From Peptococcaceae bacterium (GTDB taxonomy: Bacteria > Bacillota > Dehalobacteriia > UBA4068 > UBA4997), in NCBI GenBank assembly GCA_022797295.1, contig JAAWKH010000001.1, positions 186,060 through 250,059 of the forward strand: DNA of 64,000 nt, in the 5' to 3' direction. Under the pieces are notes generated by a model. The model made no database searches. It was not told the origin of the DNA and saw only the letters and a list, made by a program, of their open reading frames with translations. Within the stretch, counting starts at the first letter, position 1. Every line of letters begins with the position of its first letter. The position numbers and the translations under genes are program-made. This document shows positions 16,114-63,562 of the stretch, piece after piece.

Positions 16114-16187
16114 GCGGGTGTAGTTTAATGGCAGAACAAGAGCTTCCCAAGCTTTTAGCGAGGGTTCGATTCCCTTCACCCGCTCCA
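16114..16187 (+). tRNA. tRNA-Gly (anticodon CCC)
   Basis: Cloverleaf folded by eye. Acceptor stem GCGGGTG/CACCCGC, anticodon loop TTCCCAA, T-loop GGTTCGATTCC, 3' CCA encoded. Confidence 0.85.
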
Positions 16188-16434: not shown

Positions 16435-16469
16435 GAATGCGGCCATTTTCTAGGAAAATGGCCGCATTC
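16435..16469 (-). terminator. terminator of the glnN-amt operon (perfect 15-bp stem)
   Basis: GAATGCGGCCATTTT-CTAGG-AAAATGGCCGCATTC located just downstream (minus strand) of the amt stop codon. Confidence 0.7.
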
Positions 16470-16507: not shown

Positions 16508-18214
16508 TTATTTGTCAATTTCTGGATACTGTAAGGCGTCAAATCCCTCCTTACCGCTGCGCACCTGAATAACGTTCTGCACGTCATAAACGAAAATTTT
16601 GCCATCGCCGTATTCGCCAGAGTAGAGCACTTGTTTAGCAACTTCAACAATCGCATTTACGGGCACTTTAGAAACGATAACCTCCACCTTAACCTTAGGC
16701 ACAAGCTTAGTTTCCATAGCGATGCCGCGGTAAAACTCTGTGGCTCCTTTCTGCAAACCGCAGCCCATAACCTCAGTGACGGTCATACCTGTAACGCCTA
16801 GGGCTGATAAAGCATTTTTTAGGGCTTCAAAGCGAGTGCGCCGGGTGATGATAACCACCTTACTGATACCGCTGTTGCAGGTTGCTGTTTCTGGAATAGT
16901 TTCCGCAGAATTGGGCAGTTTGACCGGAGCAATGTTGTTGTTCTGTGGTTCTGTATCTTCATAAATATTGTGAGTGACGGACATAAAATCTGCATAGGAG
17001 CTTACCAAACCATGTTCAGTAATATCTAAACCGGCAATTTCTTCGGCTGTGGTAACACGCAGGCCAATAGTTTTTTTCAGTATATTAAAGATGATAAACA
17101 TTGTAACGGCCACCCAGGCGATAACACTGACAACGCCCAAGGTTTGCACTGCTAGAAAATGTATGCCATTGCCATAAAGCAATCCTTCATCTATGGAAAA
17201 CAAACCAAGCAACAATGTGCCGCTAGCGCCGCAAACCCCGTGAACCGCAATGGCGCCAACCGGATCGTCAATTTTCAGCACTTTATCAATAAACTCAACC
17301 GCAAACACCACCAGCACGCCGCAGATAGCTCCAATAAGGGCCGCGCCTAGCGGCGAAACTGCGTCGCAGCCGGCGGTGATACCCACCAAACCGGCTAAAG
17401 AGCCGTTCAAGGTCATCGAAACATCTGGTTTGCCGTAACGTACCCAAGTCAACAGCATAGTAATCAAGGTGGCAGTTGCAGCGGACAGGTTGGTTGTTAC
17501 AAAAATGGAAGCAGCTGATGTGGCGCTTTCCAGAGAGGATAGGGCAGTGGTTGAACAGCCGTTGAAGCCGAACCAGGCAAACCAAAGGATGAATACGCCT
17601 AATGCTCCAAGGGTTAGGCTATGGCCGGGAATGGCATGGCTTTTGCCGTTGCTGTCATATTTGCCAATACGAGGCCCAATGCAGGCAGCTCCAACTAGCG
17701 CGGCTACGCCGCCAACCATATGCACGGCGGTGGAACCGGCAAAATCGTGAAATCCCAGCTGGCTTAACCAACCGCCTCCCCAAATCCAGTGGCCGGAAAC
17801 GGGATAAATGCAAGCGCTGATAAGCAATGAATACAGACAATAGGTGGAGAATTTAGTGCGCTCGGCCATTGCCCCTGATACAATCGTGGCGGCTGTGGCA
17901 CAGAACACTGTTTGAAAGATGATAAAAGCAAATGAGGTGTAGCCGCTTTCAGCGCCATAATCGTTGCGGATTAAAAAATCCGGTGTGCCGATTATTCCGG
18001 CAATATCAGAACCAAACATTAAGCCAAAGCCCAGCAGCCAAAAGATAACACTACCAATCGCAAAATCCATTAAGTTTTTCATAATGATGTTACCGGCATT
18101 TTTGGCTCTGGTAAAACCGGTTTCCACCATTGCAAAGCCGGGCTGCATAAAAAACACCAATGCAGCGCCTAGCAACACCCAAAGAGTATCCAGTCCGATA
18201 ATAATTTCTTCCAT
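16508..18214 (-). CDS. amt: ammonium transporter (Amt) fused in-frame to a C-terminal nitrogen regulatory PII (GlnB/GlnK-like) domain
   Basis: N-terminal Amt transmembrane region (FFMQPGFAMVETG...). C-terminal ~112 aa match PII (GMTVTEVMGCGLQKG..., GDGKIFVYDV...). ATG at 18214 has GGAG 9 nt upstream. The ORF is continuous. Confidence 0.8.
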   Translation of the reverse strand: MEEIIIGLDTLWVLLGAALVFFMQPGFAMVETGFTRAKNAGNIIMKNLMDFAIGSVIFWLLGFGLMFGSDIAGIIGTPDFLIRNDYGAESGYTSFAFIIFQTVFCATAATIVSGAMAERTKFSTYCLYSLLISACIYPVSGHWIWGGGWLSQLGFHDFAGSTAVHMVGGVAALVGAACIGPRIGKYDSNGKSHAIPGHSLTLGALGVFILWFAWFGFNGCSTTALSSLESATSAASIFVTTNLSAATATLITMLLTWVRYGKPDVSMTLNGSLAGLVGITAGCDAVSPLGAALIGAICGVLVVFAVEFIDKVLKIDDPVGAIAVHGVCGASGTLLLGLFSIDEGLLYGNGIHFLAVQTLGVVSVIAWVAVTMFIIFNILKKTIGLRVTTAEEIAGLDITEHGLVSSYADFMSVTHNIYEDTEPQNNNIAPVKLPNSAETIPETATCNSGISKVVIITRRTRFEALKNALSALGVTGMTVTEVMGCGLQKGATEFYRGIAMETKLVPKVKVEVIVSKVPVNAIVEVAKQVLYSGEYGDGKIFVYDVQNVIQVRSGKEGFDALQYPEIDK

Positions 18215-18255
18215 TGTAAAATCACTCCAATTTAGTATAGTAAAAAAATTTATAT

Positions 18256-18301
18256 AAAAAAGACGTGCTTTGCGAGGAGAAACCTCACTTGGCACGTCTT
18301 T
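18256..18301 (-). terminator. intergenic hairpin/terminator between glnN and amt
   Basis: Minus strand AAAGACGUGCCAAGUGAGG-UUUC-UCCUCGCAAAGCACGUCUUUUUU. Confidence 0.55.
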
Positions 18302-22309: not shown

Positions 22310-23182
22310 TTATTCATTGGTCAAAGGCTGAATTTCAATGGCTTGGTTCATCATTTCCACAAAGTCCTCTTCAGTCATGTTGTTCAAAACGCTGTTCAGC
22401 TTGTCCAACAGCTCGGTATTACCTTTTTTCAGGGAGATACCAATGTTGATGTCCTCCTGGGAGGCTACAAAATCTTTGCCTTCTTCCATTTCCAGCAGCA
22501 CGAAGTTGGGGTAAACCAGCTTAGCGGCCATAGCGGTGGGTTGGTCTGTCACAATCAAGTCAACCGCACTGCTGTTTAAGGCAACCAACATCAAGGGTGC
22601 GCTTTCCATAGCCGGTTGAATGTCGGCGTCCGGGATTTGGGGCAGCATAACGTCGTACCAAACGGTTTTCAGCTGAGAGGTGCATTTGGCGCCGGCCAAT
22701 GCTTCAACGGAAGTGGCGTTGGCGTATGGCGTATCGTCACGCGTAACGGCGATAATTGAAGCATAATAGTAAGGAGCGGTGAAATCTACGCTTTCCATAC
22801 GCTCGGAAGTGATGGATTGGCCGGCAATGGCGCAATCAATAACGCCAGACTGCACAGCAATCGGCAGACTGTCCCAGTCGATTTTGTGAATTTCCAGTTC
22901 GTAGCCAATCTGGTCGGCCAGATACTTGGCCATCATAACGTCGTAGCCGTTGGCGTAGCTGTTGGTGTCCACAATCGGCACGGCGCCATTGCTGTCATCA
23001 TTTTGCATCCAGTTGTAGGGCGCATAGCCACATTCCATACCAACTCGTAATACTTTACCTTGTTCTTGGTCTTGAGTGCCGCCCTGATTGGTGGCTGGTT
23101 CCTTGCTGGTGCAGGCGCTCAGCCCAGCCAGCATACCGCACAGCAACAGCGCGGCGGTGATTAAATAAGCTAACTTTTTCAT
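22310..23182 (-). CDS. amino acid ABC transporter substrate-binding lipoprotein
   Basis: Signal peptide plus lipobox LSAC. Periplasmic binding protein family 3-like sequence. Confidence 0.8.
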   Translation of the reverse strand: MKKLAYLITAALLLCGMLAGLSACTSKEPATNQGGTQDQEQGKVLRVGMECGYAPYNWMQNDDSNGAVPIVDTNSYANGYDVMMAKYLADQIGYELEIHKIDWDSLPIAVQSGVIDCAIAGQSITSERMESVDFTAPYYYASIIAVTRDDTPYANATSVEALAGAKCTSQLKTVWYDVMLPQIPDADIQPAMESAPLMLVALNSSAVDLIVTDQPTAMAAKLVYPNFVLLEMEEGKDFVASQEDINIGISLKKGNTELLDKLNSVLNNMTEEDFVEMMNQAIEIQPLTNE

Positions 23183-23273
23183 TTTTTAATTCAATCCTTT
23201 CCATTTTTAGTAGCTTTTGGTTGGGGTTAAACTACATTTGTGACAAAATGCAGCAGAAAAACATTATATTATA

Positions 23274-23302
23274 ATTTTAATTTGATATTGCATTGATGTC
23301 AA
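23274..23302 (-). promoter_or_regulatory. sigma-A promoter (TTGACA-17-TAAAAT) of the ABC transporter operon
   Basis: Minus-strand -35 at 23297-23302 and -10 at 23274-23279. Confidence 0.5.
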
Positions 23303-23477
23303 GAGAGAAAGCATAAATTAATAAAGAACTTTGTATAATAAATACTATTGAGATTGGATTGTATTTTTTTTGTTCAAGGTATGGTAATTTAAATTTAGCT
23401 TTGTTATAATTAATAAAACAGGTTGCTAGCAGATTGATCTCAATAAGTTTTCATTATTTAAGGGGAGGAATATTCTT

Positions 23478-23963
23478 ATGAGTTTTATGGAAAAATTAAC
23501 TGATATGGCCAAAAATGCCGGCGGGGTTGCTCAGGATTTGGCTAAAAACGCTGGTGAGGCTGCGCAGGAGCTGGCCAAGGCGGCTCAGGACAAAGCGGCT
23601 TATTTGAAGGAGTTGCAAGGACTAAAATCCGCTATTCGGGAGCAGGAAGGGCTTATTGCTAAGGCTAAGATAGCGATTGCCGATAAAATTTTGGAAGCCA
23701 CAGACGGCCAAATTAGCCAAGAGGTGCAGGAGCTTTGCGCTAAGGTGCGTGAGGCCAAAAGTATGATTACTGGCCTAAAAAATCAAATTGAAAGCTTGCG
23801 CGCTTCAGCTGCGGTGAAAAATCCTGAAGTGGAAAAGGAGATCAATAAGGCGATTGCTGAAATTGACCGCCAAAATGCTTTGGATATAGCAGCTGATGTG
23901 GAGGAGGCAGCTGCCGAAGCAGAGGCCAAAATTGAGGCTGAAGCGGAAGTAAAGGCAGAATAA
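23478..23963 (+). CDS. hypothetical Ala/Glu/Lys-rich coiled-coil protein
   Basis: AAGGGGAGG RBS. Amphipathic low-complexity helical sequence with no TM segment. Confidence 0.5.
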   Translation: MSFMEKLTDMAKNAGGVAQDLAKNAGEAAQELAKAAQDKAAYLKELQGLKSAIREQEGLIAKAKIAIADKILEATDGQISQEVQELCAKVREAKSMITGLKNQIESLRASAAVKNPEVEKEINKAIAEIDRQNALDIAADVEEAAAEAEAKIEAEAEVKAE

Positions 23964-23968
23964 AGCTG

Positions 23969-25147
23969 ATGTTTGGTTTTCGTAAAAAATCCCCTGTTGA
24001 ATCAGGGGCTGCTGGTGAACCTGAAAGAGATTATACAGTATTTGCTGAAGGAATGCAGCAATTCTGGCGCCGCAGATTGCCTGGTGCAGAGTTGGGCCAA
24101 GACGGTGTAATTACAGTACCGGAGCTTGGTTTGCGTTTGTGGCAGGAGTTTTACCAACAACATCCGCAGATTTTGCAAATGGTTTTGCATTGCAATCATC
24201 CAGATTTTACAGATGACTTGACGGAGTTGCTGGTTGCCACTGGCGCCGATCCTGAAGAACAGCTGCAAGGCATGGCTGATCAGGTGGAGAGATTGGTGCT
24301 GGAGCCTTTGCTGAATGCTTTACAAGGACAAAATGGTACTTGGGAGGCTTGGCGTTTGCAAGGACGCGAGCATCTTTTTTTGGCTTGCGAAAGCTTACTT
24401 ATGGGGCGTTGTAAAGCTCAAGAGATCTTTGAGGAAAATGTACCGCAAAGCAGTTTGTGGCAGCGTTTTAAAGCTGAAATCATTCCTTATCTGGGTTGTA
24501 AGCGCAATTACTGGCTAAAGCTTTATCAAAGCAACTTTGCCAATGAGCTTAATTGTGAGGTGCGTATTAATGAGCGATTAGTGCCGGAGCTTAGTGAGCT
24601 TTTAACTCAGGACGCGCAAAAATATGCTGTAACAGATTGGGATCAAAAGCAAACCGTTATGTTGTTGCAGGATACGGCCACCAGCCTTGATTATCCTTTT
24701 AGCGCAGCTAAGGTGCGGGAATATGCTTTGCAGGCATTGAGGATGTTTGCGGCTGGTCAGGATAGCGATACAGTTTTTCAACGGTTGTGGGCTGATTGTG
24801 GTGATGTTTCTTTGAGCTGTGATTTGGCACATTATTTGCCGGAAATTTGCTGCTTTAAATGTGTGCGGGAGGCGGATACGCCTAACAAAACTTTTATTCT
24901 GCGCAGCAAGGGTTGGGCAGATGATTTGCAGCTTCGGGAAACTCAAATTGGCTGTTACGATTGGTGTGAACAGGCCATTAATGAGTTTTTCTCGGTTGAT
25001 AAGCCCAGCCGTGATACATTGACGCAGATAATTAGCTATGGCGCAACGGCCAAAGCGATGAATGCAGCTATTCAAAAGGGATCGCAGACCAAAAATATGC
25101 GTTTTAGCATGTTGTTTTGGGTACCGGATGATTATATACTGCGTTAA
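23969..25147 (+). CDS. hypothetical protein (392 aa, Cys/Trp-rich, no domain recognised)
   Basis: Begins 6 nt after the upstream stop (likely co-translated). Ends at a perfect palindromic terminator. Confidence 0.5.
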   Translation: MFGFRKKSPVESGAAGEPERDYTVFAEGMQQFWRRRLPGAELGQDGVITVPELGLRLWQEFYQQHPQILQMVLHCNHPDFTDDLTELLVATGADPEEQLQGMADQVERLVLEPLLNALQGQNGTWEAWRLQGREHLFLACESLLMGRCKAQEIFEENVPQSSLWQRFKAEIIPYLGCKRNYWLKLYQSNFANELNCEVRINERLVPELSELLTQDAQKYAVTDWDQKQTVMLLQDTATSLDYPFSAAKVREYALQALRMFAAGQDSDTVFQRLWADCGDVSLSCDLAHYLPEICCFKCVREADTPNKTFILRSKGWADDLQLRETQIGCYDWCEQAINEFFSVDKPSRDTLTQIISYGATAKAMNAAIQKGSQTKNMRFSMLFWVPDDYILR

Positions 25148-25191
25148 ACATTAAAGTACCACTGCTTTTTAAGCAGTGGTACTTTAATGTT
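25147..25191. terminator. bidirectional terminator: perfect 21-bp inverted repeat with 3-nt loop
   Basis: AACATTAAAGTACCACTGCTT-TTT-AAGCAGTGGTACTTTAATGTT between convergent genes. Confidence 0.8.
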
Positions 25192-25214
25192 ATTAATGAT
25201 TAATTTGTGTGAAA

Positions 25215-25463
25215 TCAGGCTTGTTCCGCCAGGCAAAGTCTGATAGCCTTGGCAATTTGGTCTGGACAGGAGGTTGGGCGGTTTCCACAGCGGGTGCCGT
25301 TTAGTAGTTCTGCTGTTTCCTGGGCTGGGCGGTTTAACACCAGCTTGGTGATGCCTTGCAGATTGCCGTTACAACCGCCTAAAATTTCCAGTTTGGTAAT
25401 TAAACCGTTTTCAATTTCAATTTCAATTTGGCGTGAACATACGCCTTTGGGAATGTAAATCAA
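25215..25463 (-). CDS. TSCPD domain protein (TIGR03905-like)
   Basis: YIPKGVCSRQI... and RPTSCPDQIAKAI motifs. Start probably the internal TTG (MIYIPKG) after GGAAAGGAAG. Confidence 0.55.
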   Translation of the reverse strand: MIYIPKGVCSRQIEIEIENGLITKLEILGGCNGNLQGITKLVLNRPAQETAELLNGTRCGNRPTSCPDQIAKAIRLCLAEQA

Positions 25464-25712
25464 TATGTTTCGCTTCCTTTCCAAAATATTCTTAAAAACT
25501 GATGTTATAATTATAGCATAATCTGTTATGAATTACAAACCTAAATCCATATTTGGAAAAAAAATTGTATCTTTCCTGATATTTTTCTAAAAAAATACAT
25601 AATAGTACTTGATTTTTTTAGCGAATGTTGTTATCTTAATATTAAAGACTATTATTTTAATGTCTTAAATATTATTAGGGGTAAGATATTTTATTTGAGG
25701 AGGTAATTTACT

Positions 25713-25886
25713 ATGATGAAAATTACAGATGAATGTATTGCCTGCGGCACTTGCCAAGGGGTTTGCCCAGCTGAGGCTGTGGAAACTAATGACGCTGGCG
25801 ACGGCTTCAAAATTAATCCGGATCTTTGTCTGGAATGTGGCGCTTGCGCTGCTGCTTGCCCGGTTGGGGCCATTGTGGAAGAGTAA
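25713..25886 (+). CDS. ferredoxin, 2x[4Fe-4S] clostridial type (57 aa; absent from ORF track)
   Basis: MMKITDECIACGTCQGVCPAEAV...PDLCLECGACAAACPVGAIVEE with two CxxCxxCxxxCP motifs. GGAGG 8 nt upstream. Confidence 0.8.
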   Translation: MMKITDECIACGTCQGVCPAEAVETNDAGDGFKINPDLCLECGACAAACPVGAIVEE

Positions 25887-25962
25887 ACTTTGGCTCAATC
25901 AACCAGCCGCCAGCCTCAAAGGGCGCGACTGGTTGAAATGGTTCTCACTAAGCTTTGTCTGC

Positions 25963-25999
25963 GTCCACTAAAGTGGACTTGCCAATCGCTAAGTGTTCA
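25963..25999 (+). repeat. copy A of a repeated 3'-region element: small hairpin + TTGCCAATCGCTAAGTGTTCA
   Basis: GTCCAC-TAAA-GTGGAC hairpin followed by the 21-nt motif. A near-identical copy lies at 63966..63997. Confidence 0.6.
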
Positions 26000-26009
26000 C
26001 ACAAAACAT

Positions 26010-26044
26010 AAAACGGCTGCTTTTTGTTAGGCAGCCGTTTTTGT
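26010..26044 (+). terminator. rho-independent terminator after the ferredoxin gene
   Basis: AACGGCTGC-TTTTTGTTAG-GCAGCCGTT followed by TTTTG. Confidence 0.7.
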
Positions 26045-26158
26045 GTGAAAACATTCATTTAGCTTTAGGCAAATGGAATCTTTAATAAAATGGTTGTTTT
26101 GTAGGCAAAAGTATGATATAATAATAAGAATATTGGGATAATTTTTGGATGTGATTTT

Positions 26159-26917
26159 ATGGATTTGGCTTATATTAATGATTTTTCGGCCCGATTGGGT
26201 TTGCCGTTTGAACCGGAACTGGTGCCAAAGCATGTGGCGATTGTGATGGATGGCAATGGTCGTTGGGCCAAACAGCGCGGTCAGGAGCGTAATTTTGGTC
26301 ATCGACGCGGCGTGGAAGCATTGGAAAATGTGGTTATCGGTTGCCGCAAGCTGGGTGTGCGTTATCTGACGGTTTATGCTTTTTCTACTGAAAATTGGAG
26401 TCGTCCTAAAGCGGAAATTAGCATTTTAATGGGTTTGCTGAGCGAATTTGCAGATAAAAAGCTGGCTCGTTTGAAAGCTAATCAGGTGCGGGTTCAGGTA
26501 ATAGGTGATTTTGCTGGTTTGCCAATGCTGCAACGCCTGGCCTTGCGTCATTTGTTGGATGAAACAGCTAACGAGCAGGAGTTAGTCTTAAACTTAGCCT
26601 TAAATTATGGTGGTCGAGCGGATATTTTACAGGCTATTAAACAGGCTGCTTATCAGTTGCCGCCAGATAAGTTGCAAGCTATGACTGAAGCTGAATTTAA
26701 CGGTTTTTTGCAGACTGCCGGTCAACCCGACCCAGACTTGTTGATTAGAACCAGCGGCGAGTTGCGTTTGAGTAACTTTTTGCTGTGGCAGTTGGCTTAC
26801 GCAGAATTTTATTTTACAGATGTACTTTGGCCTGATTTTGATGAAGCAGAGCTATTCCGGGCCATCTGTGCCTATCAGAAACGTTCTCGGCGGTTTGGAG
26901 CTGTTGTGGAGGCTTAA
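26159..26917 (+). CDS. uppS: isoprenyl transferase (undecaprenyl diphosphate synthase)
   Basis: HVAIVMDGNGRWA, YLTVYAFSTENW and other UppS motifs. Confidence 0.9.
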   Translation: MDLAYINDFSARLGLPFEPELVPKHVAIVMDGNGRWAKQRGQERNFGHRRGVEALENVVIGCRKLGVRYLTVYAFSTENWSRPKAEISILMGLLSEFADKKLARLKANQVRVQVIGDFAGLPMLQRLALRHLLDETANEQELVLNLALNYGGRADILQAIKQAAYQLPPDKLQAMTEAEFNGFLQTAGQPDPDLLIRTSGELRLSNFLLWQLAYAEFYFTDVLWPDFDEAELFRAICAYQKRSRRFGAVVEA

Positions 26918-62572: not shown

Positions 62573-62827
62573 TGATATTTTCAAATATTGGTGCTATAAT
62601 GTTAGCAATAGCGGAATATAATATACTTGCCCGACAGTGTGCGAAGAGATGCTGATAAGTTTTGAGCCAACACTCAAAATATGGGATTCTTATATTTGTC
62701 TGTGGACTTAATGCCTCCATCGAGTGGACTAAGGAAGCAGCTTGCGGAAGCCCACCTGCATATGCAGGTTCAAAACATCGGCGTTGGACCGGCATTGTGG
62801 GGCATTTTTTTATTAGGAGGGGATTTT
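62573..62827 (+). promoter_or_regulatory. sigma-A promoter (TTGATA-16-TGcTATAAT) plus ~220-nt structured leader upstream of pyrF
   Basis: -35 at 62573-62578 and -10 at 62595-62600. The leader contains the palindrome CCTGCATATGCAGG (62755-62768) and a T7 run (62805-62811) directly before RBS AGGAGGGG. Confidence 0.5.
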
Positions 62828-63562
62828 GTGGCTTTAACACAACAAGAGGCTAAGGAAAAAATAATTGTGGCATTGGATGTGCCAAACCGAGAGCAGGCCT
62901 TACAGCTGGTGGAGCAGCTTTATGATGAAGTTGGCGCTTTCAAAATTGGTATGCAGTTATATAATGCTGAGGGGCCAAGTATTGTGAAGGAAATTCAGCG
63001 GCTTGGCGGCAAGGTGTTTATTGATTTGAAGCTGCATGACATACCAAACACTGTGGCCGAGGCTACCAAAGTGTTGACTAATTTGCAGGCTTTTATTATG
63101 ACTCTGCACGCAGGCGGCGGCAAAAAAATGCTGGCTGCGGCTGCCAAAGCGGTGGCGGAAAGTGTGCCGGAAAATGGCTGCAAACCGTTGGTGGTTGCGG
63201 TGACAGTTTTAACCAGTTTGAGTCAGCAGGAATTTACAGAAGAAATTGGTGTTGAGCGGTCGATTGCTGAACAGGTGGTTATTTGGGCAAAAATGGCCAA
63301 AGAAGCAGGTTTAGCTGGCGTTGTGGCTTCGCCGCAGGAAATTGAGGTTATCCGTCAGGCTTGCGGACCAGATTTTGTGATTATTACGCCGGGAATTAGG
63401 CCGCTTTGGGCCGCGGCAAATGACCAAAGCCGGATTATGACGCCAAAGCAGGCTGTGCAGGCAGGCGCAAATTACTTGGTGATTGGCCGGCCAATTACGG
63501 CGGATAAGGAGCCAAAGGCTGCTGCACGCCGTATTGTTGAGGAAATTATGGAGGTTCATTAA
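62828..63562 (+). CDS. pyrF: orotidine 5'-phosphate decarboxylase
   Basis: KIIVALDV, FKIGMQL, LKLHDIPNTV and VIGRPIT motifs. The in-frame ORF 62681 is trimmed to GTG 62828, 5 nt after AGGAGGGG. Confidence 0.85.
   Translation: MALTQQEAKEKIIVALDVPNREQALQLVEQLYDEVGAFKIGMQLYNAEGPSIVKEIQRLGGKVFIDLKLHDIPNTVAEATKVLTNLQAFIMTLHAGGGKKMLAAAAKAVAESVPENGCKPLVVAVTVLTSLSQQEFTEEIGVERSIAEQVVIWAKMAKEAGLAGVVASPQEIEVIRQACGPDFVIITPGIRPLWAAANDQSRIMTPKQAVQAGANYLVIGRPITADKEPKAAARRIVEEIMEVH

Follow-up and report, generated by a model that had tools for sequence, protein, structure and literature searches.

The protein family closest to this locus among those already described is DUF6348 (Pfam PF19875), which is known but uncharacterised: a literature search for "DUF6348" or "PF19875" found no paper, and one relative of the protein studied here carries the NCBI name "DUF6348 family protein". 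We analysed two adjacent genes, A and B, in a 64-kb window (the whole stretch of DNA under study) and found that B encodes a new member of this family. The match to PF19875 (E = 1.1e-18; 68.4 bits against a gathering threshold of 27.7) spans aa 55–226 of B and profile positions 14–180 of 195. The same hit was precomputed in 8 of 8 close B homologues, and all 40 aligned members of the B family matched, among Pfam and NCBIfam families, DUF6348 alone. A first-pass annotation of the locus had found no recognisable catalytic or DNA-binding motif in either protein and taken both as of unknown function. For B, whose PF19875 match lies above the gathering threshold, this view has to be given up, whereas it stands in so far as no characterised family was found for A or B. 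The remote-homology search that the annotation had proposed accordingly placed B among the uncharacterised DUF6348 proteins and left A without a family match.

The window derives from an uncultured gut Bacillota bacterium and also holds GS-III/Amt genes and an amino-acid ABC transporter operon that is divergent from A. The features of the locus itself are collected in Table 1. Five bases (AGCTG) lie between the stop codon of A and the ATG of B, which places the start of B 6 nt past the final base of A, and a gene for a 57-aa ferredoxin with 2x[4Fe-4S] lies near the TSCPD gene. The two ORFs, their 6-nt spacing and the 21-bp inverted repeat described in the first-pass annotation were all found where it had located them, and the identities it had given to the neighbouring TSCPD and ferredoxin genes were borne out.

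Table 1. Positions of genes and of predicted signals at the A–B locus, numbered within the 64-kb window.
Feature	Coordinates	Strand	Details	Basis
Gene A	23478..23963	+	ATG start, 161 aa	ORF
Gene B	23969..25147	+	ATG start, 392 aa	ORF
TSCPD gene, convergent to B	25215..25484	−		
Predicted bidirectional intrinsic terminator of B (+) and the TSCPD gene (−)	25147..25191	.	21-bp perfect stem	
Probable A–B promoter	23382..23410	+	extended −10 and weak −35	read from sequence
Promoter-like site of the divergent amino-acid ABC transporter operon	23358..23387	−	TTACCA-18-TACAAT	consensus scan
Shine–Dalgarno sequence of A, AAGGGGAGG	23460..23468	+	ends 9 nt before the ATG	

The region upstream of A (23183–23477) is AT-rich and, in agreement with its earlier description as a promoter region, holds a conserved TGnTATAAT extended −10 element. 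In the window this element reads TGTTATAAT (23402–23410) and is preceded by a weak −35, TGGTAA (23382–23387); the pattern TGnTA(T/A)AAT was kept 46–81 nt 5′ of the A start in 6 of 6 relatives, including those lacking B. The pair of elements is probably the promoter of an A–B transcript. Blocks of TATGGTAA and ATTGTAT were likewise kept 5′ of A in four relatives (L015, L016, L017 and L002), and it is the minus-strand reading of these blocks that gives the promoter-like site of the ABC operon listed in Table 1. That site and the promoter of A stand back to back. At the position of the Shine–Dalgarno sequence of A, relatives carry GGAGG-like sequences. Between A and B we found no promoter-like or terminator-like element of note. 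The gap between the two genes measures 5 nt in the window and in L015, L016 and L002, and the A stop and the B start overlap as TAATG in L012/L017, which suggests translational coupling of A and B. From the common strand, the tight spacing, the promoter before A and the hairpin after B, the two genes appear very probably to be co-transcribed, and the operon of the first-pass annotation can be kept as two real genes with such a common transcript. We thus infer co-transcription, promoter use and termination at the locus from sequence features.

The hairpin after B is formed by two arms of 21 nt each (25147–25167 and 25171–25191) that are 100% complementary and separated by a 3-nt loop. Its first arm opens with the final base of the TAA of B, so that the repeat lies 0 nt from that stop, and 23 nt separate its far end from the TSCPD stop codon. 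Folding of the repeat as RNA yielded −32.9 kcal/mol (z = −7.3), with 0 of 200 shuffles as good; the inverted repeat is far beyond chance and represents the longest perfect hairpin of the window. A second perfect hairpin, of 16 nt, is located at 16435–16469 and is another example that looks like a bidirectional terminator. The GC-richer inner stem of the hairpin behind B (12 bp) reads GTACCACTGCTT, with TTTAATGTT following it on either strand. In L015, L016, L017 and L002 a strong hairpin of other sequence occupies the same junction. A simple terminator scan did not call the hairpin, since the T-rich tail is built into the stem itself, and an Rfam scan of 23100–26200 returned no RNA family, its matches on the terminator being hairpin look-alikes below threshold. 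With both a stem-loop and a U-rich tract present, we predict that the hairpin is a bidirectional intrinsic terminator. The earlier statement that the repeat is common to B and the convergent TSCPD gene is correct, since the perfect 21-nt repeat lies between both stops.

B contains 12 Cys (3.1%) and 11 Trp (2.8%) in its 392 residues, as its earlier description as Cys/Trp-rich implied, has a pI of 4.9, lacks a TM segment and belongs to a family of cytoplasmic proteins. When 1.84 billion cluster representatives were searched exhaustively with phmmer, 176 relatives of B emerged at E ≤ 1e-3, 94 of them at ≤ 1e-10, and a profile search of a word-indexed database with alignment A1 (40 B-family sequences, 18–66% identical to B) added one more protein. 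Among the 150 representatives listed, the relatives were mostly 365–410 aa long and aligned end to end, over about residues 50–392, indicating that the family unit comprises the entire protein (about 380 aa), of which the Pfam model covers the N-terminal half. The C-terminal half of B (aa ~240–392) is conserved, lies outside the Pfam model and holds both residues that are invariant in A1, E292 and Q326. Nearly invariant were G176, Y181, E197, R199, N201, K227, Q234, P291, Y330, S358 and G371, and the strongest motifs were YLGxKKxYWIKLY, CEVRING, EKQFxxLxQD, FIPEIY and SQxRSY. About one third of the family members carry a short N-terminal tail, M-G-[LI]-F-x-x-F-K-K, followed by a disordered linker. 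TPR repeats were present N-terminal to the B homology in at least eight representatives, and two fusions of 802 and 876 aa are extended further at the N-terminus, where Pfam recognised nothing besides the TPR of P0090. These extra regions do not represent a second DUF6348 copy, and hhalign of B did not find an internal duplication. Neither PADLOC nor PHROGs gave a significant match to B, and tblastn found none in 72,556 plasmids and 50,697 phages; we therefore rejected B as a defence or mobile-element gene.

The cysteines of B had been read as CxxC-like pairs in CCFKC and CYDWC, and the alignment did not bear out such a site. In alignment A1, C294 and C298 were each present in 4 of 40 sequences, C329 in 3 and C333 in 1, all confined to the close clade, and a homologue with 64% identity (P0005) already has CYDWL in place of CYDWC. 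The commoner cysteines were C196 (30/40) and C295 (21/40). Since the paired cysteines are not conserved across the family, a CxxC-type metal or disulfide site lacks support; a metal-binding domain was not found in B with Pfam or NCBIfam either.

We compared gene neighbourhoods among close relatives (all of them MAGs of uncultured Bacillota or gut metagenomes, one MAG being from mouse gut) and in more distant genomes. In the loci of the close relatives (L002–L005 and L012–L017) A and B are adjacent (B 64–90% and A 87–95% identical), in the order SBP-permease-ATPase(−) / A B(+) / TSCPD(−) / fdx(+) / uppS cdsA AI-2E dxr(+). In the more distant L006–L011, A occurs without B and is 52–53% identical, standing in like synteny between the ABC operon and fdx/(TSCPD)/uppS. 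Conversely, L001, L018, L020, L022, L024, L025 and L026 hold B-family genes without A: these seven comprise a 46% homologue from a Lachnospiraceae MAG and six more distant members, and tblastn of the flanks around the seven genes revealed no A-like gene. No two of their contexts agree: they are YdjM/HAD, NikA/relaxase (with the relaxase gene adjoining one distant B homologue), GH125/LRR, rpoC, a MatE gene, an ECF transporter gene and a short contig with unannotated neighbours. In total about ten B-family contexts were sampled, and a genome scan with the single B protein gave three MAG loci. The interval from A to uppS is itself variable, with TSCPD absent in L006, fdx differing in orientation among loci and an insertion in the closest relative (L015), where a 948-aa Sel1-repeat/double-AAA gene separates fdx from uppS. 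The most fitting description of B is that of an occupant of this variable slot, and gain of B in this clade and its loss in the L006/L009 lineages are indistinguishable.

These contexts also bear on the redox or nitrogen-related role that the first-pass annotation had thought conceivable from position alone. On that reading the paired cysteines of B would form a metal or disulfide site tied to GS-III/Amt or to ferredoxin/TSCPD, and it is true that GS-III, the amino-acid ABC transporter, ferredoxin and TSCPD lie close by and that the neighbourhood is retained in close relatives. The cysteines concerned are nevertheless found in at most 4 of 40 family members, B genes elsewhere adjoin relaxase, glycoside hydrolase, rpoC, MatE or ECF genes and never nitrogen or redox genes, genomes with A only keep the ABC/fdx/uppS synteny without B, and the flanking genes of the window are on the opposite strand or beyond the terminator. 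We regard such a role as very improbable, having found nothing but position to link either gene with nitrogen or redox metabolism; the vicinity of GS-III, the ABC transporter, TSCPD and ferredoxin amounts to local synteny.

Phylogenetic profiling of the pair, also suggested in the first-pass annotation, had a divided outcome: the pair was kept where B was at least 64% identical and was split in all more distant genomes examined. The refuting outcome named in that annotation, a pair that does not co-occur in related genomes, was thus observed outside the immediate clade. We thus rejected A and B as a conserved two-gene module, given that they are adjacent only at B identities of at least 64% and that each occurs alone elsewhere. 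Nor do the two proteins evolve at the same pace. Compared with L016 and L017, B was 64% and A 87–88% identical, with all 11 neighbouring proteins at 74–92%, making B the fastest-evolving gene of the neighbourhood. The dN/dS values against L015 (A 0.041, B 0.059) are low, which points to strong purifying selection and shows both to be real functional genes. Horizontal transfer of B was considered on the basis of composition and dismissed, its GC and GC3 being like those of its neighbours.

We therefore consider the locus likely to be a bicistronic, lineage-specific unit of two independent genes and not a dedicated two-component system. A would be an ancestral syntenic gene of this uncultured Bacillota group that has a conserved extended −10 promoter of its own, and B a DUF6348 gene, solitary elsewhere, that in this clade sits directly behind A. 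Owing to this position B would be read from A's promoter, probably with translational coupling to A, and transcription would end at the bidirectional hairpin terminator common to the TSCPD gene. The tight junction, kept down to 64% B identity, is compatible with a real functional link of A and B within the clade, and the two proteins may or may not bind each other there. A stronger version of this link, in which A and B form a functional module of the clade, with A as scaffold, tether or regulator and B recruited for joint work, appears rather unlikely to us. It would account for the junction (5 nt or a TAATG overlap) being kept over considerable divergence, for the lack of an internal promoter or terminator and for the purifying selection on both genes, and the N-terminal tail and linker of the B family could dock on a partner. 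However, A without B and B without A were seen in every more distant genome examined, and A, at 87% identity against 64%, evolves at a far lower rate than B, with no sign of co-evolution.

Turning to the proteins themselves, A consists of 22% Ala, 14% Glu and 11% Lys, has a pI of 4.8 and contains no hydrophobic segment (maximum KD19 0.59), so that composition and hydropathy agree with its earlier description as an Ala/Glu/Lys-rich coiled coil without a TM segment. An AF2 model (pLDDT 73.7) showed a helix at residues 3–73, a turn, a helix at 81–114 and a low-confidence acidic helical tail, and A is accordingly modelled as an acidic antiparallel coiled-coil protein, i.e. a helical hairpin. The protein is well conserved in alignment A2 apart from the variable acidic tail; its conserved motif VKNPEVEKEINKAIAEID is written VKNPE(V/I)E(K/R)EINKAIAEID in that alignment. 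All homologues (n = 25) are small and without a Pfam domain, except for a few apparent mis-called chimeras, and A is a member of a small unnamed family of coiled-coil proteins. Searches of Pfam, NCBIfam, PADLOC, PHROGs and PDB with A gave only sub-threshold coiled-coil noise, and profile A2 found nothing meaningful in the PDB, CENP-K and Rad50 being coiled-coil matches. Membership in the PspA/ESCRT-III family was rejected (PspAA, 13.7 bits against a gathering threshold of 27), as were DUF948 and Snf7, whose matches were sub-threshold and present only in some A members. A would most likely act as an oligomerising coiled-coil scaffold.

For B, an AF2 model computed with alignment A1 reached a pLDDT of 91.8 and a pTM of 0.88, with disorder only at residues 1–16. 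The model consists, in order, of an alpha-beta4-alpha unit (23–119), beta-rich units (124–234) and a mostly helical domain (246–392). Searches of PDB and BFVD yielded no match (a PDB sequence match of A1 to StbA had E = 1.4), and Foldseek with the model found nothing at E < 1e-3. We infer that B is a soluble, non-metal, globular protein with an N-terminal alpha/beta sandwich and a helical C-terminal domain, as modelled. Its conserved polar residues, a putative cluster, are E197/R199/N201, K227/Q234, E292, Q326, Y330 and S358. Our best guess, a tentative and weakly supported one, is that B is a non-catalytic protein- or ligand-binding protein, that is, an adaptor; it is based on the generic sandwich fold, which is chaperone-like or adaptor-like, on the recurrent TPR fusions, and on the fast evolution and optional N-terminal tail of the protein. 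Almost as likely, though doubtful in itself, is that B is an uncharacterised enzyme that acts alone, with the polar cluster as its active site and A unrelated to it. In its favour, two invariant residues and about 15 that are nearly so, most of them polar, are concentrated in aa 176–371 of a family with only 20–30% identity; the predicted model is confident and compact, and the genes are solitary like those of many housekeeping enzymes. This sits poorly with the lack of likeness to any catalytic fold in our searches, the absence of a nucleotide- or cofactor-binding motif and an evolutionary rate that is high compared with neighbouring enzymes. A bolder and improbable view would credit the DUF6348 proteins of about 380 aa with a new fold and function: an alpha/beta sandwich joined to a helical domain, with a conserved polar pocket (E197-x-R-x-N201, K227, Q234, E292, Q326, Y330, S358) and an optional M-G-L-F-x-x-F-K-K tail whose disordered linker could tether the protein to a partner or to the membrane, the partner in this clade being A. 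If true, A and B would represent a new scaffold-plus-effector pair in gut Clostridia.

The practical value of these results is small: a speculative redox/nitrogen reading has been removed, and B has been assigned to DUF6348. They do reveal that the PF19875 model misses a conserved C-terminal domain with the only invariant residues of the family. Furthermore, a family with a confident predicted structure and no solved relative makes DUF6348 a reasonable target for structural and functional genomics in gut Clostridia. The locus also demonstrates that adjacency seen in one genome, even together with a common promoter and terminator, can fail under phylogenetic profiling.

Compared with known systems, the fold class of B is like that of two-layer alpha/beta sandwich binding modules, as in signal peptidase complex subunit 2, F-actin capping protein alpha/beta and HPF/YfiA, and further likenesses of this kind exist to LptE/PelC lipoproteins, type III secretion chaperones and the FP domain of PI31/Fbxo7. 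These sandwich modules share 3–15% identity with B and cover part of it, so that the similarity is a fold-class resemblance and not evidence of homology. A is like small bacterial coiled-coil or hairpin proteins (PspA/ESCRT-III-type, YtxH/DUF948, phasin-like or LEA-like Ala/Lys/Glu-rich proteins) in being all-helical with a long antiparallel hairpin, Ala/Lys/Glu-rich repeats and an acidic tail. It lacks the TM helix of DUF948 proteins and falls short of PspA in length; its matches to such hairpin families are far under the curated cutoffs and look like coiled-coil composition. The hairpin behind B differs from a textbook intrinsic terminator in that its U-tract is interrupted (UUUAAUGUU). It nevertheless resembles bidirectional intrinsic (Rho-independent) terminators, in which a GC-richer inner stem lies between an A-tract and a T-tract: as in these, the hairpin is placed between two convergent stops, and the tracts extend the stem and provide a U-rich tail on both strands.

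The conserved part of B, the 392-aa DUF6348-family (PF19875) protein encoded downstream of the coiled-coil gene A, extends beyond the Pfam model, which ends at residue ~226. The last ~150 residues are conserved family-wide, with E292 and Q326 as the sole invariant positions, and constitute a domain that the Pfam model of DUF6348 misses. At the opposite end, about one third of the full-length family members (P0039, P0044, P0047, P0055, P0107 and others) start with a short motif of hydrophobic and basic residues (pattern M-G/S/F-L/I/F-F-x-x-F/L-K/R-K; MGLFDTFKK is one example), followed by a variable, disordered linker up to the start of the fold. The 802-aa fusion P0039 retains this motif at its extreme N-terminus; it is mostly missing from members fused to N-terminal TPR repeats. 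The motif may represent a docking or membrane-targeting peptide.

Among the DUF6348 homologues examined, the most distant (20% identity), from a Clostridium sp. MAG (locus L018), directly follows NikA-like and relaxase genes, and some family members may thus travel on mobilisable elements. A search of a plasmid collection for DUF6348 members returned none.

Upstream of A, a conserved block of ~50 nt (ATTGTATTTTTT...TATGGTAATTT...TGnTATAAT) is common to both putative divergent promoters in the window and in the related loci L015, L016, L017 and L002. Since the –35 regions of the A promoter and the amino-acid ABC transporter promoter overlap, the two units could be co-regulated. Within the divergent TSCPD/ferredoxin intergenic region, an imperfect palindrome overlaps the TSCPD promoter-like site (graded good) and may serve as an operator. 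A second perfect hairpin, located between the tRNA gene and the 3′ end of a 595-aa ORF (16508..18295, –), is probably another bidirectional terminator; synteny with locus L012 indicates that the ORF probably encodes an ammonium transporter/P-II fusion. Further downstream, the 6S RNA gene is overlapped by a mechanical ORF (62681..63562).

Positions of features in the window and in two related loci
Feature	Location	Strand	Details
tRNA gene	window 16114-16184	+	
Perfect hairpin	window 16435-16469		16-nt arms, 3-nt loop
Back-to-back promoters, A/ABC operon	window 23358-23410
N-terminal motif region of B	window 23969-24030		MFGFRKK
C-terminal domain of B	window 24680-25147		aa ~240-392
Imperfect palindrome	window 25488-25538		26 nt, 77%
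TSCPD promoter-like site	window 25538..25510	-	TTGTAA-17-TATAAT, TG extension
6S RNA (SsrS) gene	window 62626-62807	+	Rfam RF00013, 87.3 bits
Inserted gene, ferredoxin/uppS	L015 3120-5966		948 aa
DUF6348 homologue, neighbourhood	L018 3928-6140

The A–uppS interval is an accessory-gene hotspot. In the window, the site between the ferredoxin gene and uppS spans just ~270 nt, whereas the closest relative, L015 (90-95% amino-acid identity), carries an additional gene there, whose product, read by eye, combines Sel1-like repeats with two AAA+ ATPase modules resembling SpoVK/CbbX.
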